Source: Candidatus Omnitrophota bacterium (GTDB lineage: Bacteria > Omnitrophota > Gorgyraeia > 1-14-0-20-64-10). Taken from it: a stretch of 62,928 nt of DNA. The stretch spans positions 1-62,928 of the forward strand of contig JACQCH010000002.1 in NCBI GenBank assembly GCA_016201735.1. The letters run 5' to 3'. Below, piece after piece: positions 910-48,100 of the stretch; position 1 is the stretch's first letter, and each line of letters opens with the position of its first letter. The position numbers and the translations under genes were made by a program. Under the pieces are notes generated by a model, which was not told where the DNA came from, searched no databases, and saw only the letters and a list, made by a program, of their open reading frames with translations.

Positions 910-1162
910 GACCCCGGCTCGGGGGATGGGGTTCGAAGGCAATGAAAATCCCGAGCGGGCACGGTGTCCCCTGGGAGCTGAAATTCCAGGGACGAGCGAG
1001 GGATTTTCGATTAGCGCGGCTGGCGCTGGCGGAAGCGCCACCACGCGCCTCAGCGCAGAAGTCGACCACGTGGCTGCGGCTAGAGGAGGCCGCACCACTT
1101 GTAAGCTCTGAGTCGCTGGGGTCGACGAGCGGGCCTGAGAAGCCCTCCCACGAGCCGGGGTC
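910..1162. repeat. Second long hairpin-like non-coding segment
   Basis: 12-bp closing stem GACCCCGGCTCG (910-921) / CGAGCCGGGGTC (1151-1162) plus internal hairpins (GAAAATCCC/GGGATTTTC, TGGCGC/GCGCCA). ORFs here are R/P/S-rich and look non-coding. Confidence 0.4.
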
Positions 1163-13676: not shown

Positions 13677-14422
13677 CAGATCCTAGTGAGAATCTCCGGC
13701 CCCGATTCGGTGACCGCCACCGTGTGCTCAAAGTGGGCGGACAGTTTCCGGTCCTTGGTGACTGCCGTCCAGCCATCGGCCAGGACCTCCACCGCCGCTC
13801 CCCCCTGGTTCACCATCGGCTCGATCGCCAACACCATCCCTTCTTTGAGGACGGGGCCGAAACCGGGCTTCCCGTAGTTGGGAATCTGGGGCGGTTCGTG
13901 AAGTTCCGTCCCGATCCCGTGCCCGACAAAGTCCCTCACGACAGAATAGCCGCGCGACTCCACCGTTCTCTGGACCGCATGAGAGATGTCGGACAGCCGG
14001 TTCCCCGGCCGGGCAAAGGCGATTCCCTCAGCGAGGGCGGCCTGAGTCACCGCCATCAGATCCGCCGCCTCCTGAGAAATCTGCCCCACGGCAACGGTAA
14101 CGGCCGCATCCCCGAAGTAACCCTCAACCGTGGCCCCGACATCCAATCCCACAATGTCCCCTTCCTTCAGTTTCCGGCGAGAGGGAATCCCATGAACCAC
14201 CTCTTCATTGACCGAGGCGCAGATGTTTCCGGGAAACCCCCGGTACCCTTTGAAGGCAGGCTTTCCCCCTTCTTGGCGGATCTTCTCGCCGGCCATCTCA
14301 TCCAACTCGGCGGTGGTGATTCCCGGCCGGACCTCTTTTTTCAACATCTCAATCACCTTCGCCACGATTCGGCCCGCCTCCCTCATCCTTTCCAGCTGAC
14401 TTGGACTCTTTAATTCAATCAC
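13676..14422 (-). CDS. map: Methionine aminopeptidase type I
   Basis: ORF trimmed to the GTG at 14422 ([17 protein letters not shown]), preceded by GGAGGGG. The longer ORF reads through repeat copy A. Confidence 0.88.
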
Positions 14423-14552
14423 CCCGCCCCTCCGGAATGGTGCCCTCGGCTCAGACGAGATGGACCCCTCGGAATTTTTTTTAGCCGAGGGCACCTGCGC
14501 CTTCGGCGCAGTGAAGCGGCCAAGGCCGCTTCATCATTCCGGAGGGGCGGGG
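14422..14552. mobile_element. Family-1 MITE copy A (TIR CCCCGCCCCTCCGG; TCA/TCA flanks at 14419-21 and 14553-55)
   Basis: Perfect 14-nt TIRs. Internal hairpins GGTGCCCTCGGCT/AGCCGAGGGCACC, TGCGCC-TTCG-GCGCA and GAAGCGGCC/GGCCGCTTC. Internal order is inverted relative to copies B-D. Confidence 0.8.
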
Positions 14553-15226
14553 TCATTCACCAGTTGCTCGGTCCGAAGCAAATCCAGAAGCAGCTGGTAC
14601 TGCTCCTCAATCCTACCCTCGCCGGAAACCTCCCGCAGTTTTCCCTGAGCCCGGTAAAATTCCAGTAAGGGGGCCGTTTGAGACTCGTAAACCTTCAGCC
14701 GATTTCGGATCGTCTGCGGATTGTCGTCCGGCCGGGTCCTCAACACCCCGCCGCATCGATCGCATAAGCCCCGCCGCTTGGAGGGCAGACGTTCCAGATG
14801 GTAATTGGCCCCGCACTTCTCGCAGACCCTGCGCCCAGCCAATCGGCCCACCATCGTCTCCTCCGAGACTTCAAACCCGATGGTCAGATCAATCGGGGAG
14901 TCTCCACTCCGAGCTAACGCTTCGTCCAGCGCCTTGGCCTGCTCCACCGTCCGGGGAAAACCGTCCAGCACAAACGGGATTTTCTTGCCTAGGTTCCCCA
15001 TCCGTTCCAAAATCAATTCGGTCACGAGCTCATCGGGAAGCAAGGAGCCCGATTCCATCAACCGGGCCGCCTCTTTGCCGCGAGGGTTCCCCTGTTGAAC
15101 CGATTCCCGGACCATCTCCCTCAGCAAATTCCCGCTCGACAGATGCGTCACCTTCAGCCGTTCCGCCAAAAGCAAAGCCAGCGTTCCCTTTCCGGCGCCG
15201 GGCGGACCCAAAAAGATCAGCCGCAC
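14534..15226 (-). CDS. adk: Adenylate kinase
   Basis: Trimmed to the GTG at 15226 (VRLIFLGPPGAGKGT). Zn-lid CEKCG..CDRCG. The last 6 codons (DPAPPE) are encoded by the MITE arm. Confidence 0.9.
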   Translation of the reverse strand: MRLIFLGPPGAGKGTLALLLAERLKVTHLSSGNLLREMVRESVQQGNPRGKEAARLMESGSLLPDELVTELILERMGNLGKKIPFVLDGFPRTVEQAKALDEALARSGDSPIDLTIGFEVSEETMVGRLAGRRVCEKCGANYHLERLPSKRRGLCDRCGGVLRTRPDDNPQTIRNRLKVYESQTAPLLEFYRAQGKLREVSGEGRIEEQYQLLLDLLRTEQLVNDPAPPE

Positions 15227-15290
15227 CCCGCACCACCTCTGAGTCCTTCCGGCGTCTGAAACCAAGGTGTAACGGGCCGCATCACTAACC

Positions 15291-16640
15291 TTATCGCCGA
15301 GAACGGAGCCGGCCATGAGTCAAGAACCCCTCGTAATTGCGCATGAGAAGAAAAGATTCGACCTGACGCATCGTGTCCAGCATCACCCCGACAATGATCA
15401 GAAGACTTGTCCCCCCAAAGAAACTGGCGACCAAATAGGGAATCCCAAGCCAACGCCCAACCATATCCGGAAAAACCGCCACCACCGCCAGGAAAACCGC
15501 CCCGGGCAGCGTGATTCGGGTCAGCAGCCGATCAAAGAACTCCGCCGTGGGCCGCCCGGGCCGAATGCCGGGCACGAATCCCCCGAACTTCTTCATATTG
15601 TCGGCCACATCCACCGGATTGAATGCGATGGCCGTGTAAAAATAGGCGAAGAAAACGATGAGCAGCGTGTAGAGCACCGTATAAAGGATCTGCCCCCGGG
15701 TCAGCCAGTGGGAGAACCGGTTGAGTGCCTGAATCCCGGTGAAGCCGGCCACCGTCGCCGGAAACAGGATGATCGACTGCGCAAAGATGATCGGGATCAC
15801 CCCCGCGTGATTGACCCGGATCGGGATGTAACTGGCCTGCCCACCGTACACCTTCCGCCCCACAATCCGACGGGCGTACTGGACGGGAACGCGGCGTTGA
15901 GCCTGAGTGATCGCAATGACCGCCAGGACCACCGCCACCAGCATCACCGCCATCAAGGCCAGGGTGAACGGCTGGATCTGCCGCTGGCTGGCCGACCCGG
16001 GGCTGGCCAGCAGAACCAACTGATGGACCGCCGTCGGCAGGCGCGACAGGATGCCGGAGGTGATCAAGATCGACATCCCGTTGCCGACTCCGTAGGCGGT
16101 GACCTGCTCTCCGAGCCACATGATGAAGGCCGTCCCGCTGGCGAGCGTCACGATCGTCAGCAATCGGAATCCCCACCCCGGATACTGGACCATCTGCACC
16201 CCTTCAAAATTCCGGGAGTTCTCCAGCCAGAGACTGATGAACAGAGCCTGCAGGATTCCCAACCCCACTGTCAGATACCGGGAATACTGGTTGATCCGAC
16301 GCCGCCCCGCTTCGCCCTCTTCCTTGGCCATCTGCTCGAGCTGCGGGATCACCACCACCAAGAGCTGCATGATGATGGAGGCCGAAATGGCCGGCATGAT
16401 CCCCAGAGCGAAGATCGTCATGTTGGAAAGGCCGCCGCCGGAAAACAGATCCATCACGGTGAACAGCGTCCCGCCCAACTGTTGGCTGATTCTGTCAAAG
16501 AACGCCCGCATCGCGTTCCCATCAATCCCCGGCAGGGGGATATAGGCCCCGACCCGATAGACGGCAATGAGCCCCAGGGTCAGCAGGATTCGCTGCCGCA
16601 GCTCCGGGATCTTAAAACTGTTGGCAAGCGCCCTGAGCAT
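15291..16640 (-). CDS. secY: Preprotein translocase SecY
   Basis: 449 aa, 10 TM-like segments, [15 protein letters not shown]-terminus. Confidence 0.96.
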   Translation of the reverse strand: MLRALANSFKIPELRQRILLTLGLIAVYRVGAYIPLPGIDGNAMRAFFDRISQQLGGTLFTVMDLFSGGGLSNMTIFALGIMPAISASIIMQLLVVVIPQLEQMAKEEGEAGRRRINQYSRYLTVGLGILQALFISLWLENSRNFEGVQMVQYPGWGFRLLTIVTLASGTAFIMWLGEQVTAYGVGNGMSILITSGILSRLPTAVHQLVLLASPGSASQRQIQPFTLALMAVMLVAVVLAVIAITQAQRRVPVQYARRIVGRKVYGGQASYIPIRVNHAGVIPIIFAQSIILFPATVAGFTGIQALNRFSHWLTRGQILYTVLYTLLIVFFAYFYTAIAFNPVDVADNMKKFGGFVPGIRPGRPTAEFFDRLLTRITLPGAVFLAVVAVFPDMVGRWLGIPYLVASFFGGTSLLIIVGVMLDTMRQVESFLLMRNYEGFLTHGRLRSRR

Positions 16641-22455: not shown

Positions 22456-22739
22456 GTCTTCGCCTGGGGTTTGGTCACGCCCTTGACCCCGTGCTTCTTG
22501 AACGTCCGCGTTGGGGAAAACTCCCCTAACTTATGCCCCACCATGTTCTCGGTCGCGAAAACGGGAAGAAACTTATTGCCGTTGTGAACCAGAAACGTAT
22601 GCCCCACGAAATCCGGCGTCACCGTGGAACGCCGGGACCAGGTCTTAATGGGTTTGCGCTCACCGGATTTCCCGAGCTTCTCGATCTTCTCCATCAAACA
22701 TTTGTCCACGAAGGGACCCTTGCGTGTGGATCGTCCCAT
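22452..22739 (-). CDS. rpsS: Ribosomal protein S19
   Basis: Trimmed to the ATG at 22739 ([12 protein letters not shown]..). The longer ORF reads through the inserted element. Confidence 0.93.
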
Positions 22740-22741
22740 TA

Positions 22742-23015
22742 GTGTTGCCAACCGTGAGTTCTCAGCCCGTTGGCTGAGGCGATTTTGGAGCGAGACAAGG
22801 AGCGAGGAGCGAGCATACTGAAACGAAGTATGTGAGCGACGAGCGACGCAGTCGCAGCCCAAAAGCGCCCAGCCCCTTCGGGGAAGCCCAGGATTGGTCC
22901 ATTTCTTCGTTGCTCCTCCTCGACGTGTTCCAGAGAACACGCCTTCGTCGTCGCGCCTCGAACTGGCCTCAATCCTGGGCTTCCAACGAGCTGAGAACTC
23001 ACGGTTGGCAACACC
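22742..23015. mobile_element. ~274-nt MITE with perfect 25-bp TIRs and a TA duplication, filling the rplB-rpsS gap
   Basis: GTGTTGCCAACCGTGAGTTCTCAGC (22742-22766) is the exact inverse of 22990-23014. TA lies at 22740-41 and 23016-17. Internal hairpins include CCCC-TTCG-GGGG and GGAAGCCCAGGATTG/CAATCCTGGGCTTCC. Confidence 0.8.
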
Positions 23016-24126: not shown

Positions 24127-24131
24127 CGTAC

Positions 24132-24274
24132 GCGCCCTCCGGCCGCCCTCTGGCGGCCTTCGGGTCGGCCTCCCGCCGTGCTGTCGCTCGGCCCGACGGC
24201 CTCGCTTTTCCTCGCTCCGCTCGGCGCACGGCTCCCCTGAACCGCTGAATAAGGGAAAAAACTGCAGCGGTTCA
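24132..24274. repeat. Family-2 intergenic element, copy 1 (between rplD and rplW)
   Basis: About nine-tenths identical by eye to 37988..38131. In RNA sense it starts with TGAACCGCTG..CAGCGGTTCA (its TGA is the rplD stop) and ends with GGCCGCC-AGAG-GGCGGCC followed by GGAGGGCGC. Confidence 0.8.
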
Positions 24275-24895: not shown

Positions 24896-25662
24896 TATTT
24901 CTTCTCCTTGGCGGCCGCGGGGGCTTTGGGAGCAGGCGCCTTGGCGGCTGCCGCTTTCGCAGCCGGCGCTTTTGCCGCCTGGGGAGCACCCGCCTTCTTC
25001 TTTACCTGAGGAGCGTGCACCACTTTAGGCGGCTTGCGTGATCTCCGGATCAACACAACTCCCTGATCATGGCCGGGAACCGCCCCCTTAACCAGCAGCA
25101 GATTTTCGGCGGCATCGACCCGGATCACCTCGAGGGCCTGCGTTGTCACCCGCTCTCCTCCCATTCGACCCGGCAGATGATGCCCTTTAAAAACCCGGGA
25201 AGGATTCGTGCTGGAACCGATCGAACCGGGAGCCCGGTGCGACATGGAGCCGTGCGTCTGCGGGCCTCCCTTCCAATGCCAACGCTTCACCCCTCCCTGA
25301 AACCCTTTCCCAATAGAAGTCCCCGTCACATCGATCCGATCTCCGGGCTTAAACAGATCAACGGTCACAGAAGACCCCACGGCAACCTGCTGATCGGCAG
25401 GAAGGCGAAATTCCCGCACCAGACGCTGTGGGGAAACGTTGGCCTTGGTGAACCGTCCCAAGAAAGGCTTGGAAATCCTCTTCGAATCCCCCGGCTCAAA
25501 ACCGAGCTGGACCGCTCGATAACCATCCTTTTCAGGAGTTTTCACCTGGACCACCGTGCAGGGGCCTGCCGCAAGAACGGTGACCGGAACCGGCCGGCCA
25601 TCCTCCCGGAAGATCTGCGCCATTCCCAGTTTTCGTCCTATCAATCCCAGCCCCGGTTTCAC
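24895..25662 (-). CDS. rplC: Ribosomal protein L3 with an A/K/P-rich C-terminal tail
   Basis: Trimmed to the GTG at 25662 (VKPGLGLIGRKLGMAQIF), preceded by GGAGGGG from MITE copy B. Confidence 0.9.
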   Translation of the reverse strand: MKPGLGLIGRKLGMAQIFREDGRPVPVTVLAAGPCTVVQVKTPEKDGYRAVQLGFEPGDSKRISKPFLGRFTKANVSPQRLVREFRLPADQQVAVGSSVTVDLFKPGDRIDVTGTSIGKGFQGGVKRWHWKGGPQTHGSMSHRAPGSIGSSTNPSRVFKGHHLPGRMGGERVTTQALEVIRVDAAENLLLVKGAVPGHDQGVVLIRRSRKPPKVVHAPQVKKKAGAPQAAKAPAAKAAAAKAPAPKAPAAAKEKK

Positions 25663-25801
25663 CCCGCCCCTCCCGAGTTCCGCTTCTCTCCCTGCAGGGA
25701 GAGAAGCACTGTGCCGAAGGCACAGATGCCCTCGGCTGTCTCCCACTTGAATCTTAAAGAATCCACCCCTCCTGCCGAGGGCATACCCCGGAGGGGCGGG
25801 G
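25662..25801. mobile_element. Family-1 MITE copy B (between rpsJ and rplC)
   Basis: TIRs at 25662-75 and 25788-801; TCA at 25659-61 and 25802-04. Hairpins CTTCTCTCCC-TGCA-GGGAGAGAAG, CTGTGCC-GAA-GGCACAG and GCCCTCGGC/GCCGAGGGC. Confidence 0.85.
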
Positions 25802-26113
25802 TCATTTGATTTCCACGTCCACGCCGGCGGGCAGATCCAACTTCCGCAGCGCATCGACCGTCTTGGAGGTCGGGTTCAGAATATCCAGAAGGCGCTTATG
25901 CGTCTTCATCTGGAACTGCTCGCGGGATTTCTTATCAACATGAGGAGAACGCAAAACCGTGTAAATCTCCCGCCTTGTGGGAAGCGGCACCGGGCCCGAA
26001 ACCGAAGCCCCGGTCCGGCGGGCCGACTCGACGATCTCCGCCGTCGACTGGTCCAGGATTCGGTGATCGTATGCCTTCAACTTGATCCGGATCTTCCTCT
26101 GTTGTTCGGCCAT
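25802..26113 (-). CDS. rpsJ: Ribosomal protein S10
   Basis: Trimmed to the ATG at 26113 ([21 protein letters not shown]). TGATG overlap with the fusA stop. Confidence 0.95.
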
Positions 26114-37983: not shown

Positions 37984-37987
37984 CAAT

Positions 37988-38131
37988 GCGCCCTCCGGCC
38001 GTCCTCTGGACGGCCTACGGGTCGGCCACCCGCCGTGCTGTCGCTCGGCCTGACGGCCTCGCTTTTCCTCGCTCCGCTCGGCGCACGGCTCCCATGAACC
38101 GCTGAATAAGGAAAAGAACTGCAGCGGTTCA
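37988..38131. repeat. Family-2 intergenic element, copy 2 (between rplA and rplJ)
   Basis: Same architecture as 24132..24274. The 3' hairpin here is GGCCGTCC-AGA-GGACGGCC, which differs from copy 1 by compensatory changes. Confidence 0.8.
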
Positions 38132-38824
38132 TCATTCTTCCGGTTTCCCTTCCGCCGGATCCAGCCGGATCCCAGGCCCCATCGTGCTCGAAAGAGCGAC
38201 CGATCGGACGTATCGTCCCTTCACCGAAGCCGGCTTTGCTTTCCAGAGGGCGGTCAAAAGAGCATGGGCATTCTCCTCCAAGGCCTCCTCCGGGAACGAC
38301 CGCTTGCCGATTCCCAGATGGATGTCCCCCTGCTTGTCCATCTTAAACTCCACCTTCCCCCCTTTGACTTCCTTCACCGCTCTGGCGACATCCATGGTGA
38401 CCGTGCCGGCCTTGGGACTGGGCATGAGGCCCCGGGGCCCCAGAAACTTTCCCAGCTTGCCCACCTCTTTCATCAGGTCCGGGGTCGAGACCACCACATC
38501 AAAATCGAGCCACCCTCCCTGGATCTTTTCGATCAGTTCTTCCGCTCCGACATGGTCGGCTCCGGCTTCCTTCGCCGCCCGCTCCATCTCTCCCTTGGCG
38601 AAGACCAGAACCTTCACCGATTTTCCGGTTCCATGGGGGAGGACGACCGTTCCCCGAACCGTGGCATCGGTCTGCTTCGGGTCCACGTCCAAATCAATGG
38701 CGATCTCGACCGACTCATCAAACTTTGGAGCGGGGGCCTTCTTCAAAAGGGATACCGCCTCCTTCAGGCCGTACCGCTTCCCCGGTTCCACCAGCTGCTG
38801 GGCGGCCGCGGTCCGCTTACTCAC
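38132..38824 (-). CDS. rplA: Ribosomal protein L1
   Basis: Trimmed to the GTG at 38824 (VSKRTAAAQQLVEPGKRYGLKEAV), preceded by GGAGGGG of MITE copy C. Confidence 0.9.
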   Translation of the reverse strand: MSKRTAAAQQLVEPGKRYGLKEAVSLLKKAPAPKFDESVEIAIDLDVDPKQTDATVRGTVVLPHGTGKSVKVLVFAKGEMERAAKEAGADHVGAEELIEKIQGGWLDFDVVVSTPDLMKEVGKLGKFLGPRGLMPSPKAGTVTMDVARAVKEVKGGKVEFKMDKQGDIHLGIGKRSFPEEALEENAHALLTALWKAKPASVKGRYVRSVALSSTMGPGIRLDPAEGKPEE

Positions 38825-39008
38825 CCCGCCCCTCCGGAGTCCCGTTTCCATCCCTGCAGGGATGGAAACGCTGTGCCGAAGGCACAGATGCCCTCGGCGG
38901 TCTCCCACTCCAATAGATCACCCTTTCCATAAAATACCTGTAGCAGATCCTTGGATCTTAAAGAATCCACCCCCCCTCTGCCGAGGGCATACTCCGGAGG
39001 GGCGGGGC
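38824..39008. mobile_element. Family-1 MITE copy C (between rplK and rplA), with an extra ~45-nt internal segment
   Basis: TIRs at 38824-37 and 38994-39007; TCA at 38821-23 and 39009-11. Shares GCCGAGGGCATCTGTGCCTTCGGCACAG with copy B (copy D has TTGGG in place of TTCGG). Confidence 0.85.
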
Positions 39009-39437
39009 TCATCCTTCCACCACCTCGATCCCCATGCTCCGGGCGGTCCCCTCCACCTGTTTCATCGCCTGCTCGATGGTTTGGGTGTTCAAGTCCTTCA
39101 GTTTCAGTGAAGCGATCTCTCGGACCTTTGATTTCGGGACCTTGCCGACCTTCTCTTTATTCGGCGTCCCCGATGCCTTGGCGATCCCGCAGGCCTGCTT
39201 CAAGAGAACCGACGCCGGCGGGCTCTTGATCAGAAAGGTGAAACTCCGATCCTCGTAAGCGGTGATCACCACCGGCAGGATCAGCCCCCCCTGCGCCTTG
39301 GTCTGCTCGTTGAAGGCCTTGCAGAATTCCATGATATTCAAGCCGTGCGAACCCAGCGCCGGCCCCACCGGAGGAGCCGGGTTGGCCGAACCGGCCGGAC
39401 AATAAAGCTTGATCGTTGCCTTCACCTTTTTCGCCAC
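39009..39437 (-). CDS. rplK: Ribosomal protein L11
   Basis: 142 aa; [15 protein letters not shown] motif. Confidence 0.96.
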
Positions 39438-42001: not shown

Positions 42002-42222
42002 GGCCACGGGTCCTGGCGTGGGGCGGCCCCGCATCCGGCATCGGGCCTTGTTCGGATGGGTTGTTCACATATACCATGTCAGAGCAAAGGCAGGTGACCA
42101 AACCCAACAGGCCTCTCCATGGAAAGTCGTACAGTTCAGCATGGGTTTCCATTCGGTCAGGGCTTGGCCTCACACGTCGGTCCTGCTGGCGTCTGCGGGG
42201 CCGCCCCACGCCACCCGTGGCC
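42002..42222. repeat. Long imperfect hairpin element R2 (between tRNA-Gly and the tuf promoter)
   Basis: GGCCACGGGTCCTGGCGTGGGGCGGCCCCGCA pairs with TGCGGGGCCGCCCCACGCC-ACCCGTGGCC. The internal arms also pair. Homologous to 681..891. Confidence 0.7.
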
Positions 42223-46370: not shown

Positions 46371-47143
46371 CCCGTCCTCCGGCCTGAGGGAGAATCCGCC
46401 GCTCCATCGTAAAGGATCCTCGCTAGGTCTTCCCTCTCTAAGTCCTTGGTCAATTTTCCCTTCACCGCCATCGAGATCGTCCCGGTCTCTTCCGAGACAA
46501 CGATCACCAGCGCGTCAGTCTCCTCGCTTAAACCCAGCGCCGCCCGGTGCCGGGTGCCCATCGTCTTGGAAAGCTGGGGGTTCTCGCTCAACGGAAAGAG
46601 GCAGGCCGCCGCGGCCAGCCGCCGCTGGGAAATCACCACCCCGCCGTCGTGCAGGGGAGTCCCTGTCATGAAGAGGGTCTGGAGAAGTTCGCTCGAGATC
46701 GCCGCGTCCATGGTGACGCCGCTTTCCGCGTACGAGGCCAGAGACGTTTGCTGCTCAATGGCAAGGATCGCCCCGATCCGCCGGCGGGAAAGGGCCAGCA
46801 TCCCTTTGATGATCTCCTCCACCACTTCCTCACGGCGGGGGGCCAGCCGGAAAATCGTTTCCCCGCCGATCCGGGCCAGTCCTCGGCGCAGTTCCGGATG
46901 AAAGATGACGATGAACGCAACCGCGATGACGGTCGCCAGCTTCTCGAAAAGCCAGGCGATCACCTCGAACTGAAGCAGTCCCGCCACCAGGGCCACCAGG
47001 AGCAGGACCACCACCCCGCGCAAAACTTGGATGGCCATGGTCCCCTGGATGAAAACAAGAACCCAATAATAAAAGGCCCAGAGGATCCCGATCTCCAACA
47101 GGGCCCGGACCAGGTCCCATGTCCCCAGAAAGAATCCGCTCAC
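46367..47143 (-). CDS. cdaA: Diadenylate cyclase CdaA (DisA_N domain, 3 N-terminal TM helices)
   Basis: 258 aa with GTG start made by MITE copy D. TPLHDGGVVI and GTRHRAALG motifs. Confidence 0.9.
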   Translation of the reverse strand: MSGFFLGTWDLVRALLEIGILWAFYYWVLVFIQGTMAIQVLRGVVVLLLVALVAGLLQFEVIAWLFEKLATVIAVAFIVIFHPELRRGLARIGGETIFRLAPRREEVVEEIIKGMLALSRRRIGAILAIEQQTSLASYAESGVTMDAAISSELLQTLFMTGTPLHDGGVVISQRRLAAAACLFPLSENPQLSKTMGTRHRAALGLSEETDALVIVVSEETGTISMAVKGKLTKDLEREDLARILYDGAADSPSGRRTG

Positions 47144-47290
47144 CCCGCCCCTCCGGAGTGCCCCTGTCCTCTGGGTCTGCTATTCTGTGATATCACCCGA
47201 ATACCTCCAGCAGTCTGGTTGCATCCCGGCTGAGAGGACAGGGGCACTGTGCCCAAGGCACAGATGCCCTCGGCCCATCCTTCCACCCAG
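47143..47290. mobile_element. Family-1 MITE copy D, one-ended/variant (between folP and cdaA)
   Basis: TIR at 47143-56 with TCA at 47140-42. Core GCCGAGGGCATCTGTGCCTTGGGCACAG is present. It has a different long hairpin, AGTGCCCCTGTCCTCT/AGAGGACAGGGGCACT. The far TIR is absent. Confidence 0.7.
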
Positions 47291-47293
47291 TCA

Positions 47294-48100
47294 TCATGCA
47301 TCAAGCCGGGCCGCTTGACGCATCAGAGCCACATCATGGACGCGGACAATGTCCGCCCCGCCCCAGACCGATAAGGCGACCGCCGCCGCCGTCCCCATGA
47401 GACGGCCTTCCACCGGAGCTCCGGTCGCATGCCCAATGAATGATTTTCGGGAAGGCCCGACGACCAGCGGAAGCTCGAGCATCGCTTTAAAGGCAGAGAG
47501 GGATTTAAGCAGCGTTAGGTTGTCTTGCCAACGCTTGCCGAACCCAAGCCCCGGATCGACGAGGATCTTCGCCCTTGGGATTCCGGCAGCCTTGGCCTTC
47601 TCGATCGAGCGCTTCAAGTCCGAGACGATCTCCGGGATTAATCGGCGATAACGGGGATTCCGCTGCATGGTCTGAGGGACCCCCCGCATATGCATCAGGA
47701 TCACCGGAACCTTGGCCGTGGCAACCACCTGCGGCATCTTGGGATCCCGCAGGGCCGTCACATCGTTGACGAGACTGGCGCCGACTCCAAGCGCCGCCCG
47801 CGCCACAGAGGCCTTGTACGTATCCACAGAGATCGGGATCTTCAGCCGGCCGACCAATCTCTCCAAGACCGGCAGGATCCGCCGGAGTTCCTCCTCCGCA
47901 GAGATCGGTCTTGCTCCGGGCCGGGTAGATTCTCCGCCCAGATCAATCAGATCCGCCCCTTCCTCCTGCATCTGAAGAGCCCGGGCCGCCGCCTGGCGGG
48001 GATGAGTGAAACGCCCTCCGTCGCTGAAGGAGTCGGGCGTCACATTGAGGATTCCCATGATCAAAGCCCGCTGACCCAGGGGAAGCCGGAAAGGAACCAC
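47294..48100 (-). CDS. folP: Dihydropteroate synthase
   Basis: 268 aa; GILNVTPDSFSDGG motif. Confidence 0.94.
   Translation of the reverse strand: MVPFRLPLGQRALIMGILNVTPDSFSDGGRFTHPRQAAARALQMQEEGADLIDLGGESTRPGARPISAEEELRRILPVLERLVGRLKIPISVDTYKASVARAALGVGASLVNDVTALRDPKMPQVVATAKVPVILMHMRGVPQTMQRNPRYRRLIPEIVSDLKRSIEKAKAAGIPRAKILVDPGLGFGKRWQDNLTLLKSLSAFKAMLELPLVVGPSRKSFIGHATGAPVEGRLMGTAAAVALSVWGGADIVRVHDVALMRQAARLDA

Follow-up and report, generated by a model that had tools for sequence, protein, structure and literature searches.

The stretch analysed here, the window, comprises 62,928 nt of a Candidatus Omnitrophota contig in which all genes lie on the minus strand; coordinates are window positions unless another locus is named. 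It contains four copies (A to D) of a small non-coding element of 131-184 nt, one of which (D) is truncated at its 5' end. Pfam assignments of the neighbouring genes place the copies between adk and map (A), rpsJ and rplC (B), rplK and rplA (C), and folP and cdaA (D). The window copies end in inverted CCCCGCCCCTCCGG/CCGGAGGGGCGGGG sequences of 14-17 nt, and the intact copies have TGA on both sides. The 14-mer CCCCGCCCCTCCGG, or a form of it with one mismatch, is found at 14422, 14552 (minus strand), 25662, 25801 (minus strand), 38824, 39007 (minus strand) and 47143. With up to two mismatches allowed, the 14-mer has 14 matches in the window against 4.4 expected, a number reached by none of 100 shuffles, and a 28-nt internal core (GCCGAGGGCAyCTGyGCCTTsGGCrCAG) occurs four times against an expectation of zero. 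An nhmmer profile of the family run on the window matched the four copies and no further one. Positions and sequences of the copies, including the 14-mer ends of A-C and the single cdaA-proximal end with its TGA in D, agree with a preliminary description of this DNA. The copies belong to a family of non-autonomous miniature inverted-repeat elements in Candidatus Omnitrophota, and at least two sister families share its logic. The features at the four junctions are as follows.

14422 to 14552, plus strand (host genes on minus): copy A, 131 nt, adk/map junction, perfect 14-nt ends, nhmmer E=8e-24
14553 to 14555, minus strand: upstream TGA at A, part of the old map start ATGA (14556-14553), out of frame for adk
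14419 to 14421, minus strand: downstream TGA at A, forming GTGA with G14422; new map GTG at 14422-14420
14534 to 14536, minus strand: present adk stop, inside element A; the ADK Pfam domains lie on ORF 14534..15316
25662 to 25801, minus strand: copy B, 140 nt, rpsJ/rplC junction, one end mismatch; Shine-Dalgarno (SD) sequence GGAGG at 25673-25669; rplC GTG at 25662-25660
25802 to 25804, minus strand: upstream TGA at B, both the rpsJ stop (S10 open reading frame (ORF) end 25802) and part of the old ATGA
38824 to 39007, minus strand: copy C, 184 nt, rplK/rplA junction; new rplA GTG at 38824-38822; nhmmer E=2e-44
39008 to 39011 (upstream) and 38823-38820 (downstream), minus strand: TGAG repeats at C; the upstream TGA is the rplK stop, L11 ORF end 39009
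47143 to 47303, minus strand: copy D, folP/cdaA junction, 5' strands of helices P1 and P2 (see below) missing; nhmmer model positions 105-184
47143-47141 and 47296-47294, minus strand: cdaA GTG and folP stop at D, the latter within element-derived sequence

Copy A is inverted relative to the other three, its plus strand aligning with the minus strand of B, C and D; owing to the symmetry of the ends, the junctions are identical in either orientation. At A the adk ORF enters the element by 19 nt (...EQLVND-PAPPE*) and has thereby gained a C-terminal PAPPE. At D the last codons of folP and its stop are element-derived sequence. Copy D is a 5'-truncated member of a subfamily whose near-identical intact copy at L005:934-1134 shows the missing part.

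Target site and empty junctions

Copies outside the window lie in nine other contigs, at loci that carry L numbers here. They bring the family to 13 distinct copies, with L016 and L019 duplicating L015 and L018; three copies of a sister family and one of a third family come in addition. Full copies measure 131-213 nt, each has terminal inverted ends of 14-17 nt that are perfect or carry one mismatch, and their only ORFs are frames of 30-63 codons without Pfam domains. By its size, inverted ends, TGA duplication with empty sites, dispersed copies and occurrence in both orientations, the element is a MITE (a transposable element of the miniature inverted-repeat type).

On the coding strand, copy A is flanked by gaaTGA and TGAttg, copy B by aaaTGA and TGAaac, and copy C by ggaTGAG and TGAGtaa, the repeat being 4 nt in this case; at D, TGA follows the sole (cdaA-proximal) end. 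The uninterrupted junctions of relatives carry a single TGA, both at adk/map (ATGATTGA) and at rpsJ/rplC (...ATGAAACC). In the relative L017, whose Map is 84% identical, the empty adk/map junction reads ttggttcATGATTGAactcaag, with the single-TGA site tcATGATTGAactc; adk ends ..LVHD*, map starts MIELKSPSQ and the two genes overlap by 8 nt, an arrangement found again in a second relative with adk ending ..LVHD*. The occupied junction in the window, ctggtgaATGA followed by the element and TGATTGAatta, equals the L017 junction plus the element and one extra TGA. At rpsJ/rplC, the empty sites of L011 (aaaTAAaATGAAACCC) and L007 (aaaTAGgcATGAAACCT) correspond to aaATGA, the element and TGAAACCG in the window. 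Of 16 full copies, 11 have TGA at both borders, L005a has TTGA at both, and the remaining four have unequal flanks. We take the TGA to be a genuine target duplication that at times extends to 4 nt, as with TGAG in C and TTGA in L005a, and regard it as highly probable that this is a mobile element which duplicates TGA at start codons.

A start codon abuts all 17 copies examined. The base preceding the left TGA is A in nine copies, G in two and T in two but never C, which indicates that the pre-insertion site was a start codon followed by A; furthermore, A follows the downstream TG in 15 of the 17. The target appears to be the start codon with this A (NTGA, that is ATGA, GTGA or TTGA) and not a stop/start overlap as such. 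Copies B and C do sit in ATGA overlaps whose TGA doubles as the rpsJ or rplK stop. At L015, the mlaE stop TAA is followed by a spacer containing GGAGAG and then by ATGA, the element and TGATTGAA (mlaF start). At L018 the copy comes after ~350 nt of non-coding DNA and lies exactly on the NTP-transferase start MKAILLAAGVGRRM, and at L003 it occupies the start of an upstream ORF of five codons, which in turn is GTGA-coupled to the main gene.

These data bear out the core of the preliminary description, an inverted-end MITE that duplicates a TGA target: its copies are found in several genomes, in front of unrelated genes and in either orientation, and the orthologous junctions of relatives are single-TGA empty sites at adk/map (L017) and rpsJ/rplC (L011, L007). 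The placement given there, exactly in ATGA stop/start overlaps, proves too narrow, as L015 and L018 have no upstream stop and the TGA at A is not the adk stop. That the upstream TGA still terminates the upstream gene is true of B (rpsJ) and C (rplK) but not of A, where adk stops at 14536-14534. Before insertion the adk/map junction was the 8-nt overlap ATGATTGA, as relatives show.

Past NTGA, no conserved sequence was evident in the flanks of the copies examined, and the SD-like purine runs upstream of copies are what any start codon would have before it. Minus-strand open frames take up about 98% of the window, in which at least five ATGA overlaps are unoccupied. Neutral non-coding targets are thus scarce, and the association with start codons may partly reflect survivorship; L015 and L018 hint at a genuine preference for start sites. 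Directly before a 145-nt repeat described below, the rplA stop is a tandem TGATGA (38134-38129, minus strand), a possible footprint left when a TGA-duplicating element was excised, or a coincidence.

Remade start, relay frame and fold

The terminal G of the element and the TG of the downstream TGA form a GTG that, for both L3 and Map, falls exactly on the ATG of relatives in alignments. For L3 (N-terminus MKPG.GLIG), the ATG of L011 and L007 is at the position of the GTG in the window, and the Map N-terminus read from the new GTG is common to ~30 relatives. GGAGG lies 6 nt upstream. The preliminary description had derived the GTG from the terminal G plus TGA and the GGAGG from the inverted end, and both are present as claimed; two independent gene calls use the GTG, one on a Logan contig (L006) that yields a 255-aa L3 and the other in the source annotation, where P0129 is a 248-aa Map. 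At L018 (1356-1394, minus strand) the gene caller chose an ATG inside the NTP-transferase gene (1356) as its start, an annotation error caused by the element: the conserved N-terminus MKAILLAAGVGRRM begins at the element-made GTG (G at 1395).

The old start codon remains intact in front of the element, and its frame runs through to the downstream TGA, ending as GTGA on the new start. We refer to this frame as the relay ORF. In the window it takes the following form.

14419 to 14556, minus strand: relay ORF of A, 45 aa, from the old ATG to the TGA overlapping the new GTG, no internal stop
25659 to 25805, minus strand: relay ORF of B, 48 aa, peptide ending NSGGAG*; old ATG at 25805, closing TGA at 25661-25659
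38821 to 39012, minus strand: relay ORF of C, 63 aa, a listed ORF
47140 to 47301, minus strand: relay ORF of D, 53 aa; its ATG overlaps the folP end and its TGA the cdaA GTG

The relay ORF of C is a called gene (P0121) in the protein database, derived from the source contig, and another pipeline calls the relay frame in L009 as a 44-aa gene. For statistics on the frame we used only copies that were found independently of ORFs and have TGA on both sides, omitting L013, L014 and L015, which were found via called ORFs and are biased in this respect. The lengths of these copies are 131, 140, 184(+1), 155, 143, 86, 128 and 128 nt, all 2 mod 3, which places the old start in frame with the downstream TGA. 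No stop occurs in the 299 codons of the relay frame, compared with 18 in the 605 codons of the other two frames (8.9 expected, Poisson P ~1.4e-4); in copy A, each of the two non-relay frames holds two stops. The length classes of the variable hairpin P4 (27, 30, 33, 60 and 90 nt) are all multiples of 3. Copies that lack a start at their edge carry an internal SD and start in the same frame, likewise ending on the TGA: GAAGGAG-N7-ATG in L001, AAGGAG-N3-ATG in L005b, an ATG overlapping the folP end in D and AGGAGG..TTG in L003. If flipped, the element would present an open antisense relay frame in only about half of the copies. The element is hence not built to be open both ways, which fits the observed orientation bias of 11 sense to two inverted copies (A and L018).

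All copies are predicted to form the same four-helix junction (P1-P4) at -0.5 to -0.7 kcal/mol per nt, copy A giving a 4-way junction of -102.6 kcal/mol. P1 is made of the two ends (14-20 bp), P2 pairs GUGCCCUCGGC with GCCGAGGGCAC and encloses a variable insert, P3 is CUGUGCC-UUC-GGCACAG and P4 is a hairpin of variable sequence. In an alignment of ten copies, 98.9% of 452 cells are standard pairs, a value reached by none of 500 shuffles, with slid controls at 43-48%. Compensatory (two-sided) changes are found in 14 pairs, 8 of them among the 9 that make up the main P4 helix, and again none of 500 shuffles reaches this. Structural conservation is above that expected for a decaying MITE. The structure may serve the RNA (through compactness, by bringing old and new starts together, or in nuclease resistance) or the DNA (in transposase recognition). 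The end-end duplex P1 amounts to -35.0 kcal/mol for 14 bp and -41.2 for the usual 17 bp, and in copy B the predicted mean probability of being unpaired is 0.07 for the stretch from SD to GUG compared with 0.67 for the region of the old AUG. The SD and GTG are thus probably buried in the end-end helix, and a ribosome would be needed to open it. The sister family is predicted to fold similarly.

Known functions for such a structure were considered and rejected. Rfam 15 run on the window returned only six tRNAs and no match to the element as a known RNA family or ribozyme, and an E-value search of five element-bearing loci with Rfam gave one chance match (20 bits against a gathering score of 69). 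Consensus scans for promoters and terminators remained at chance level, and sizes and ends are unlike those of group I or II introns, as would be needed for intron-like removal.

A proposed translational relay and its alternatives

We propose the following mechanism. The element would insert at the TGA of an NTGA start (ATGA, GTGA or TTGA) and duplicate it, so that its terminal G and the downstream TGA create a new GTG with the GGAGG of the inverted end as SD 6 nt upstream. The old start, with its own ribosome-binding context or its overlap with an upstream stop, would now open a relay ORF of 30-63 codons ending on the downstream TGA, which overlaps the new start as GTGA (-4 coupling). As the end-end helix would bury SD and GTG, the downstream gene would be translated mainly when a ribosome opens the helix. 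Ribosomes would enter at the old start, by way of the old coupling or the old SD, melt the structure and terminate at the UGA, whereupon re-initiation at the GUG would be helped by the exposed GGAGG. In B and C, where the upstream UGA borders directly on the 5' strand of P1, a ribosome that terminates at this codon would likewise start to unwind the helix. The original translational coupling of the operon would in this way be relayed across the insert. The -4 GTGA geometry is the commonest for coupled genes and fits models of RNA unfolding as well as re-initiation (PMC12548453). That the relay ORF is translated, and that initiation at the GTG depends on it, we infer from sequence; the complete mechanism, relay ORF included, seems to us somewhat more probable than not. 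The element itself would have been moved by a DDE-type transposase.

The strongest alternative, that of the preliminary description, takes the element for an ordinary MITE and its ends as sufficient for neutrality: the upstream TGA stops the upstream gene, ribosomes bind de novo at the SD and GTG, and inner sequence and frame are irrelevant. Stop, GGAGG and GTG are indeed present at every intact copy, and B and C do use the TGA as rpsJ and rplK stop. However, the SD and GTG are predicted to be locked in a helix of -35 to -41 kcal/mol, with a probability of being unpaired of 0.07, and the 3n+2 lengths, the stop-free relay frame, the P4 indels in multiples of 3 and the variants with internal SD and ATG are left unexplained. 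Moreover, the TGA at A is not the adk stop, and L015 and L018 have no upstream stop at the site. We therefore consider this account unlikely. The SD and GTG claimed there are correct at the sequence level, but neutral ends are an incomplete account: both signals appear sequestered, and neutrality also seems to need an open frame along the whole element.

Less probable still is an origin without true target duplication, in which a site-specific or single-strand (HUH/recombinase) mechanism places the element, for example at TGA^TG overlaps, and selection shapes the flanking triplets. Exact excision that keeps both triplets would also give the canonical overlaps TGATG, TAATG and TAGTG, and L001 (TAA/TGA), L002 (TAG/TGG) and L013 (TGA/TCA, between convergent genes) would fit without drift. 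Yet L017 and the second relative have exactly one TGA at the same adk length, where one more codon would be needed under this origin; C never precedes the left TGA, only A, G or T, which is what an old NTG start predicts, an A follows the downstream TG in 15 of 17 copies, and the symmetric ends occur in both orientations. The exceptions have explanations of their own. The ATAA flank of L001 differs from ATGA by a single G-to-A change, and L002 shows clear decay: one nucleotide is deleted and an end carries a mismatch. L013 lies between convergent genes, each stop abutting one end, and has upstream gene and insertion point in common with L014, with different DNA and a different gene downstream; it would be the product expected from inversion between two inverted copies. 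On balance an origin without duplication is improbable.

A host cis-regulatory structured RNA (processing site, insulator, thermosensor or protein-binding leader), recruited at several junctions and kept for regulation, would account for the conserved covarying junction, for P1-P3 being near-invariant between genomes whose L3 is only ~75-80% identical, for the bias of 11 sense to two inverted copies and for sense-strand G-U wobbles outnumbering A-C mismatches. We judge it very improbable, since close relatives lack the element at the same junctions, copies stand before unrelated genes, in both orientations and with direct repeats at their borders, there is no Rfam match, and promoter and terminator signals are not above chance; a regulatory role may have been gained after insertion. 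Finally, a functional small protein (motifs MTPPLR, AEGxCAFGT and SGGAG), with the 'element' as its gene, can practically be dismissed: the frame is conserved, peptides from different contigs align and some are annotated by gene callers, but the conserved peptide segments coincide with the paired nucleotides of P1-P3, the P4 segment has changed wholly in sequence through compensatory base changes, the inverted copies A and L018 encode unrelated peptides, and only five related proteins, none with a Pfam domain, were found in a library representing ~15 billion.

Several observations weigh against the relay mechanism or the mobile element behind it. The full-length relay frame is broken in L003 and L002, open frames are not rare in GC-rich sequence (B is open in the GTG frame too), and the relay-positive copies L013, L014 and L015 were found via called ORFs and are biased accordingly. 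The covariation could serve transposition, through folded single-stranded DNA, and not translation. Five copies lack TGA on both sides (L001, L002 and L013 as given above, L005a with TTGA/TTGA and L005b with gca/TGA) and call for drift, for duplication of 4 nt or for recombination between copies. In ~190 kb of loci, no transposase or autonomous partner with these ends turned up, nor any longer element so bounded, and among the copies no recent (identical) ones or polymorphic sites were seen.

A further, tentative extension is that the elements actively home to start sites, the transposase recognising an SD-spacer-NTGA that mimics its own end (GGAGG-N6-G/TGA), and that they are translationally transparent parasites by virtue of a ribosome-openable cloverleaf and relay ORF; we regard this as possible but doubtful. 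If true, it would have allowed colonisation of the most essential, tightly coupled operons in a genome with almost no intergenic DNA, and part of the copies may later have been turned to host use as modules for coupling or insulation. On the relay mechanism, selfish DNA would live in the ribosomal-protein operons of a compact genome by imitating the coupling grammar of its host (NTGA overlap, SD and re-initiation), and the copies would offer a natural, sequence-defined test bed for whether coupling relies on RNA unfolding or on re-initiation. For annotation, L3, L1, Map and CdaA would start on element-made GTG codons, and 'hypothetical' genes of 44-63 aa would be relay frames.

Distribution, sister families and known elements

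The best named relatives of L3 and Map in the window are from Candidatus Omnitrophica/Omnitrophota, at ~70-84% identity. Scanning DNA with the 28-nt core, a pattern that is probably too strict, gave three loci in a set with one genome per species and two loci in metagenomes. Of the former, two are in a metagenome-assembled genome (MAG) labelled Planctomycetia and the third is in an Omnitrophota MAG. The first of these MAGs, GCA_964372955.1 (L001, L002 and L009), is titled 'uncultured Planctomycetia'; its L3 is 78% identical to the Omnitrophota-type L3 of the window, so that it counts as a relative and does not show spread across phyla, and the label may be wrong or the bin mixed. Searches with the translated element returned three matches (two of them new) in 5.8 billion clusters and two more in 1.84 billion representatives, so that the family is either rare or seldom called as an ORF. 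Few members of it appear in public data, and those shown so far come only from Omnitrophota-like genomes. The genes behind the other copies are pyrE-like, ABC ATPases, argD, galE-like, mlaF, an NTP-transferase and dgk-like.

A search for solo ends in the loci scanned for an autonomous partner found only one, adjoining L005b: at L005 919-933, a solo right end GGAGGGGCGGGG followed by gca directly precedes the intact D-type copy and may be the remnant of a tandem or nested insertion. At L009 9778-10000, the rpsJ/rplC junction carries a different insert of ~220 nt including an assembly gap (run of N), which indicates that the same junction was hit independently.

A generic scan for end pairs revealed a sister family in three copies (ends CCCCACCAC..CGGAGGTGGTGGGG) and a third family in a single copy (ends CCCCGCCCTCGCTT).

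L009 9336-9463, L009 11383-11510 and L005 1518-1603: sister family, ends CCCCACCAC(T/C)T../..GGAGGTGGTGGGG, 128, 128 and 86 nt
L005 122-237: third family, ends CCCCGCCCTCGCTT/AAGCGAGGGCGGGG, TTGA on both sides with the whole TTG start duplicated, relay frame with one stop

Each sister copy is flanked by TGA at both ends, is 2 mod 3 in length and carries an open relay ORF; those of L009 lie at fusA/rpsJ and rplD/rplW in a relative of the window organism.

MIRUs, which Supply and colleagues are said to have described in 1997 and 2000, are reportedly units of 46-101 bp, often in tandem, without long inverted ends, TGA duplication or a four-helix junction. According to PMC12548453, they insert at start codons, carry an internal ORF coupled at -4 nt and are thought harmless owing to translational coupling. 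Both MIRUs and our elements are thus short interspersed repeats at start codons in operons with an ORF overlapping the host start at -4 nt. The Omnitrophota copies are set apart by architecture: each is a lone unit of 131-213 nt, bounded by inverted ends and not arrayed in tandem. They occur in another host phylum, and in them the new start also takes its SD and its first base from the element's end. Neisseria REP2 and Borrelia IR repeats resemble them in lying just upstream of ORFs, bringing a ribosome-binding site (RBS) and start codon, and having internal stem-loops. REP2, which carries an RBS and ATG (PMC3184786), differs in having a promoter and no terminal inverted repeats, and is not described in pre-existing start codons with duplication or relay ORF. 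The view in the preliminary description that no described family has this property does not quite hold, given the precedents of MIRUs (PMC12548453) and REP2 (PMC3184786). What is new is the combination of ends encoding an SD and the first base of a start, an NTGA overlap remade on both sides, a 3n+2 length and a covarying four-helix junction. As a second independent example beside MIRUs, the family suggests that bacterial repeats find a general niche in start codons when they bring a relay ORF.

Bacterial MITEs such as Correia/NEMIS, ERIC, Chunjie and Nezha are likewise small, dispersed and co-transcribed, lack a transposase and have inverted ends with a short duplication (PMC10969869, PMC3184786), and Chunjie has been reported within an operon without disturbing it (PMC10969869). 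Unlike our elements they are mostly intergenic, or lie at TA or other targets regardless of start codons, and none is described with ends that rebuild SD and start or with a constraint on length or frame. Start and stop codons go unmentioned in a 2024 review of prokaryotic MITEs (PMC10969869), and our literature search found nothing on such elements in Omnitrophota. The palindromic RPE of Rickettsia also survives in essential genes, through in-frame translation with its frame conserved (PMC10969869), but it lies inside the coding sequence and becomes part of the host protein, whereas the present elements lie between genes or at the start and would encode a separate relay peptide. REP/REPIN sequences, short imperfect palindromes with a conserved 5' tetranucleotide that are mobilised by RAYT and make no target duplication, differ from our copies, which have a direct TGA repeat, empty sites and a 4-way junction in place of a simple REP doublet.

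Elements of the IS5/PIF-Harbinger type (IS1031 and IS427 groups) make a 3-bp TNA target duplication, occasionally one of 4 bp, and have short inverted ends, which in the IS5 family are typically GG/GAG. The TGA/TCA (TNA) flanks of our copies are similar; their ends, in contrast, start with CCCC, and no transposase was found nearby, so that the resemblance is a lead only.

Three other junction elements of unrelated sequence in the window likewise carry full-length relay ORFs, and the relay principle looks like a general condition for insertions to persist in these operons.

22742 to 23014, minus strand: 273-nt MITE-like element at rplB/rpsS, 32-nt inverted ends (GTGTTGCCAACCGTGAGTTCTCAGC.CGTTGG), unrelated sequence
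24127 to 24271 (rplD/rplW) and 37987 to 38131 (rplA/rplJ), minus strand: two copies of a 145-nt repeat, ~90% identical, without long inverted ends

The 273-nt element has a TA repeat in a would-be TAATG overlap, with the rplB stop rebuilt as TAG, and a 91-codon ORF (22739..23014) that begins with the first base of the element, directly after the rplB stop, and ends as TAATG on the rpsS start. The 145-nt repeat has GGAGGG near its 3' end, the 3' end GGCCGGAGGGCGC serving as SD, and its relay ORFs of 51 and 50 aa start with ATGCTGA or ATGA at the upstream stop and end with GTGA or TTGA on the downstream start.

Two further inverted repeats were noted in the window. At 910-1162 (minus strand), a 20-nt inverted pair (GACCCCGGCTCG.GGGAGGG/CCATCCCCCGAGCCGGGGTC), 10 nt past an ATGA at 1172-1169, may be another junction element. 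Between tRNA-Gly and tRNA-Thr, an inverted repeat at 42014-42213 has 32-nt arms that are 84% complementary and 136 nt apart, and its arm motif CTGCGGGGCCGCCCCACGCCA appears again in the metagenome locus L005 at ~845-870.

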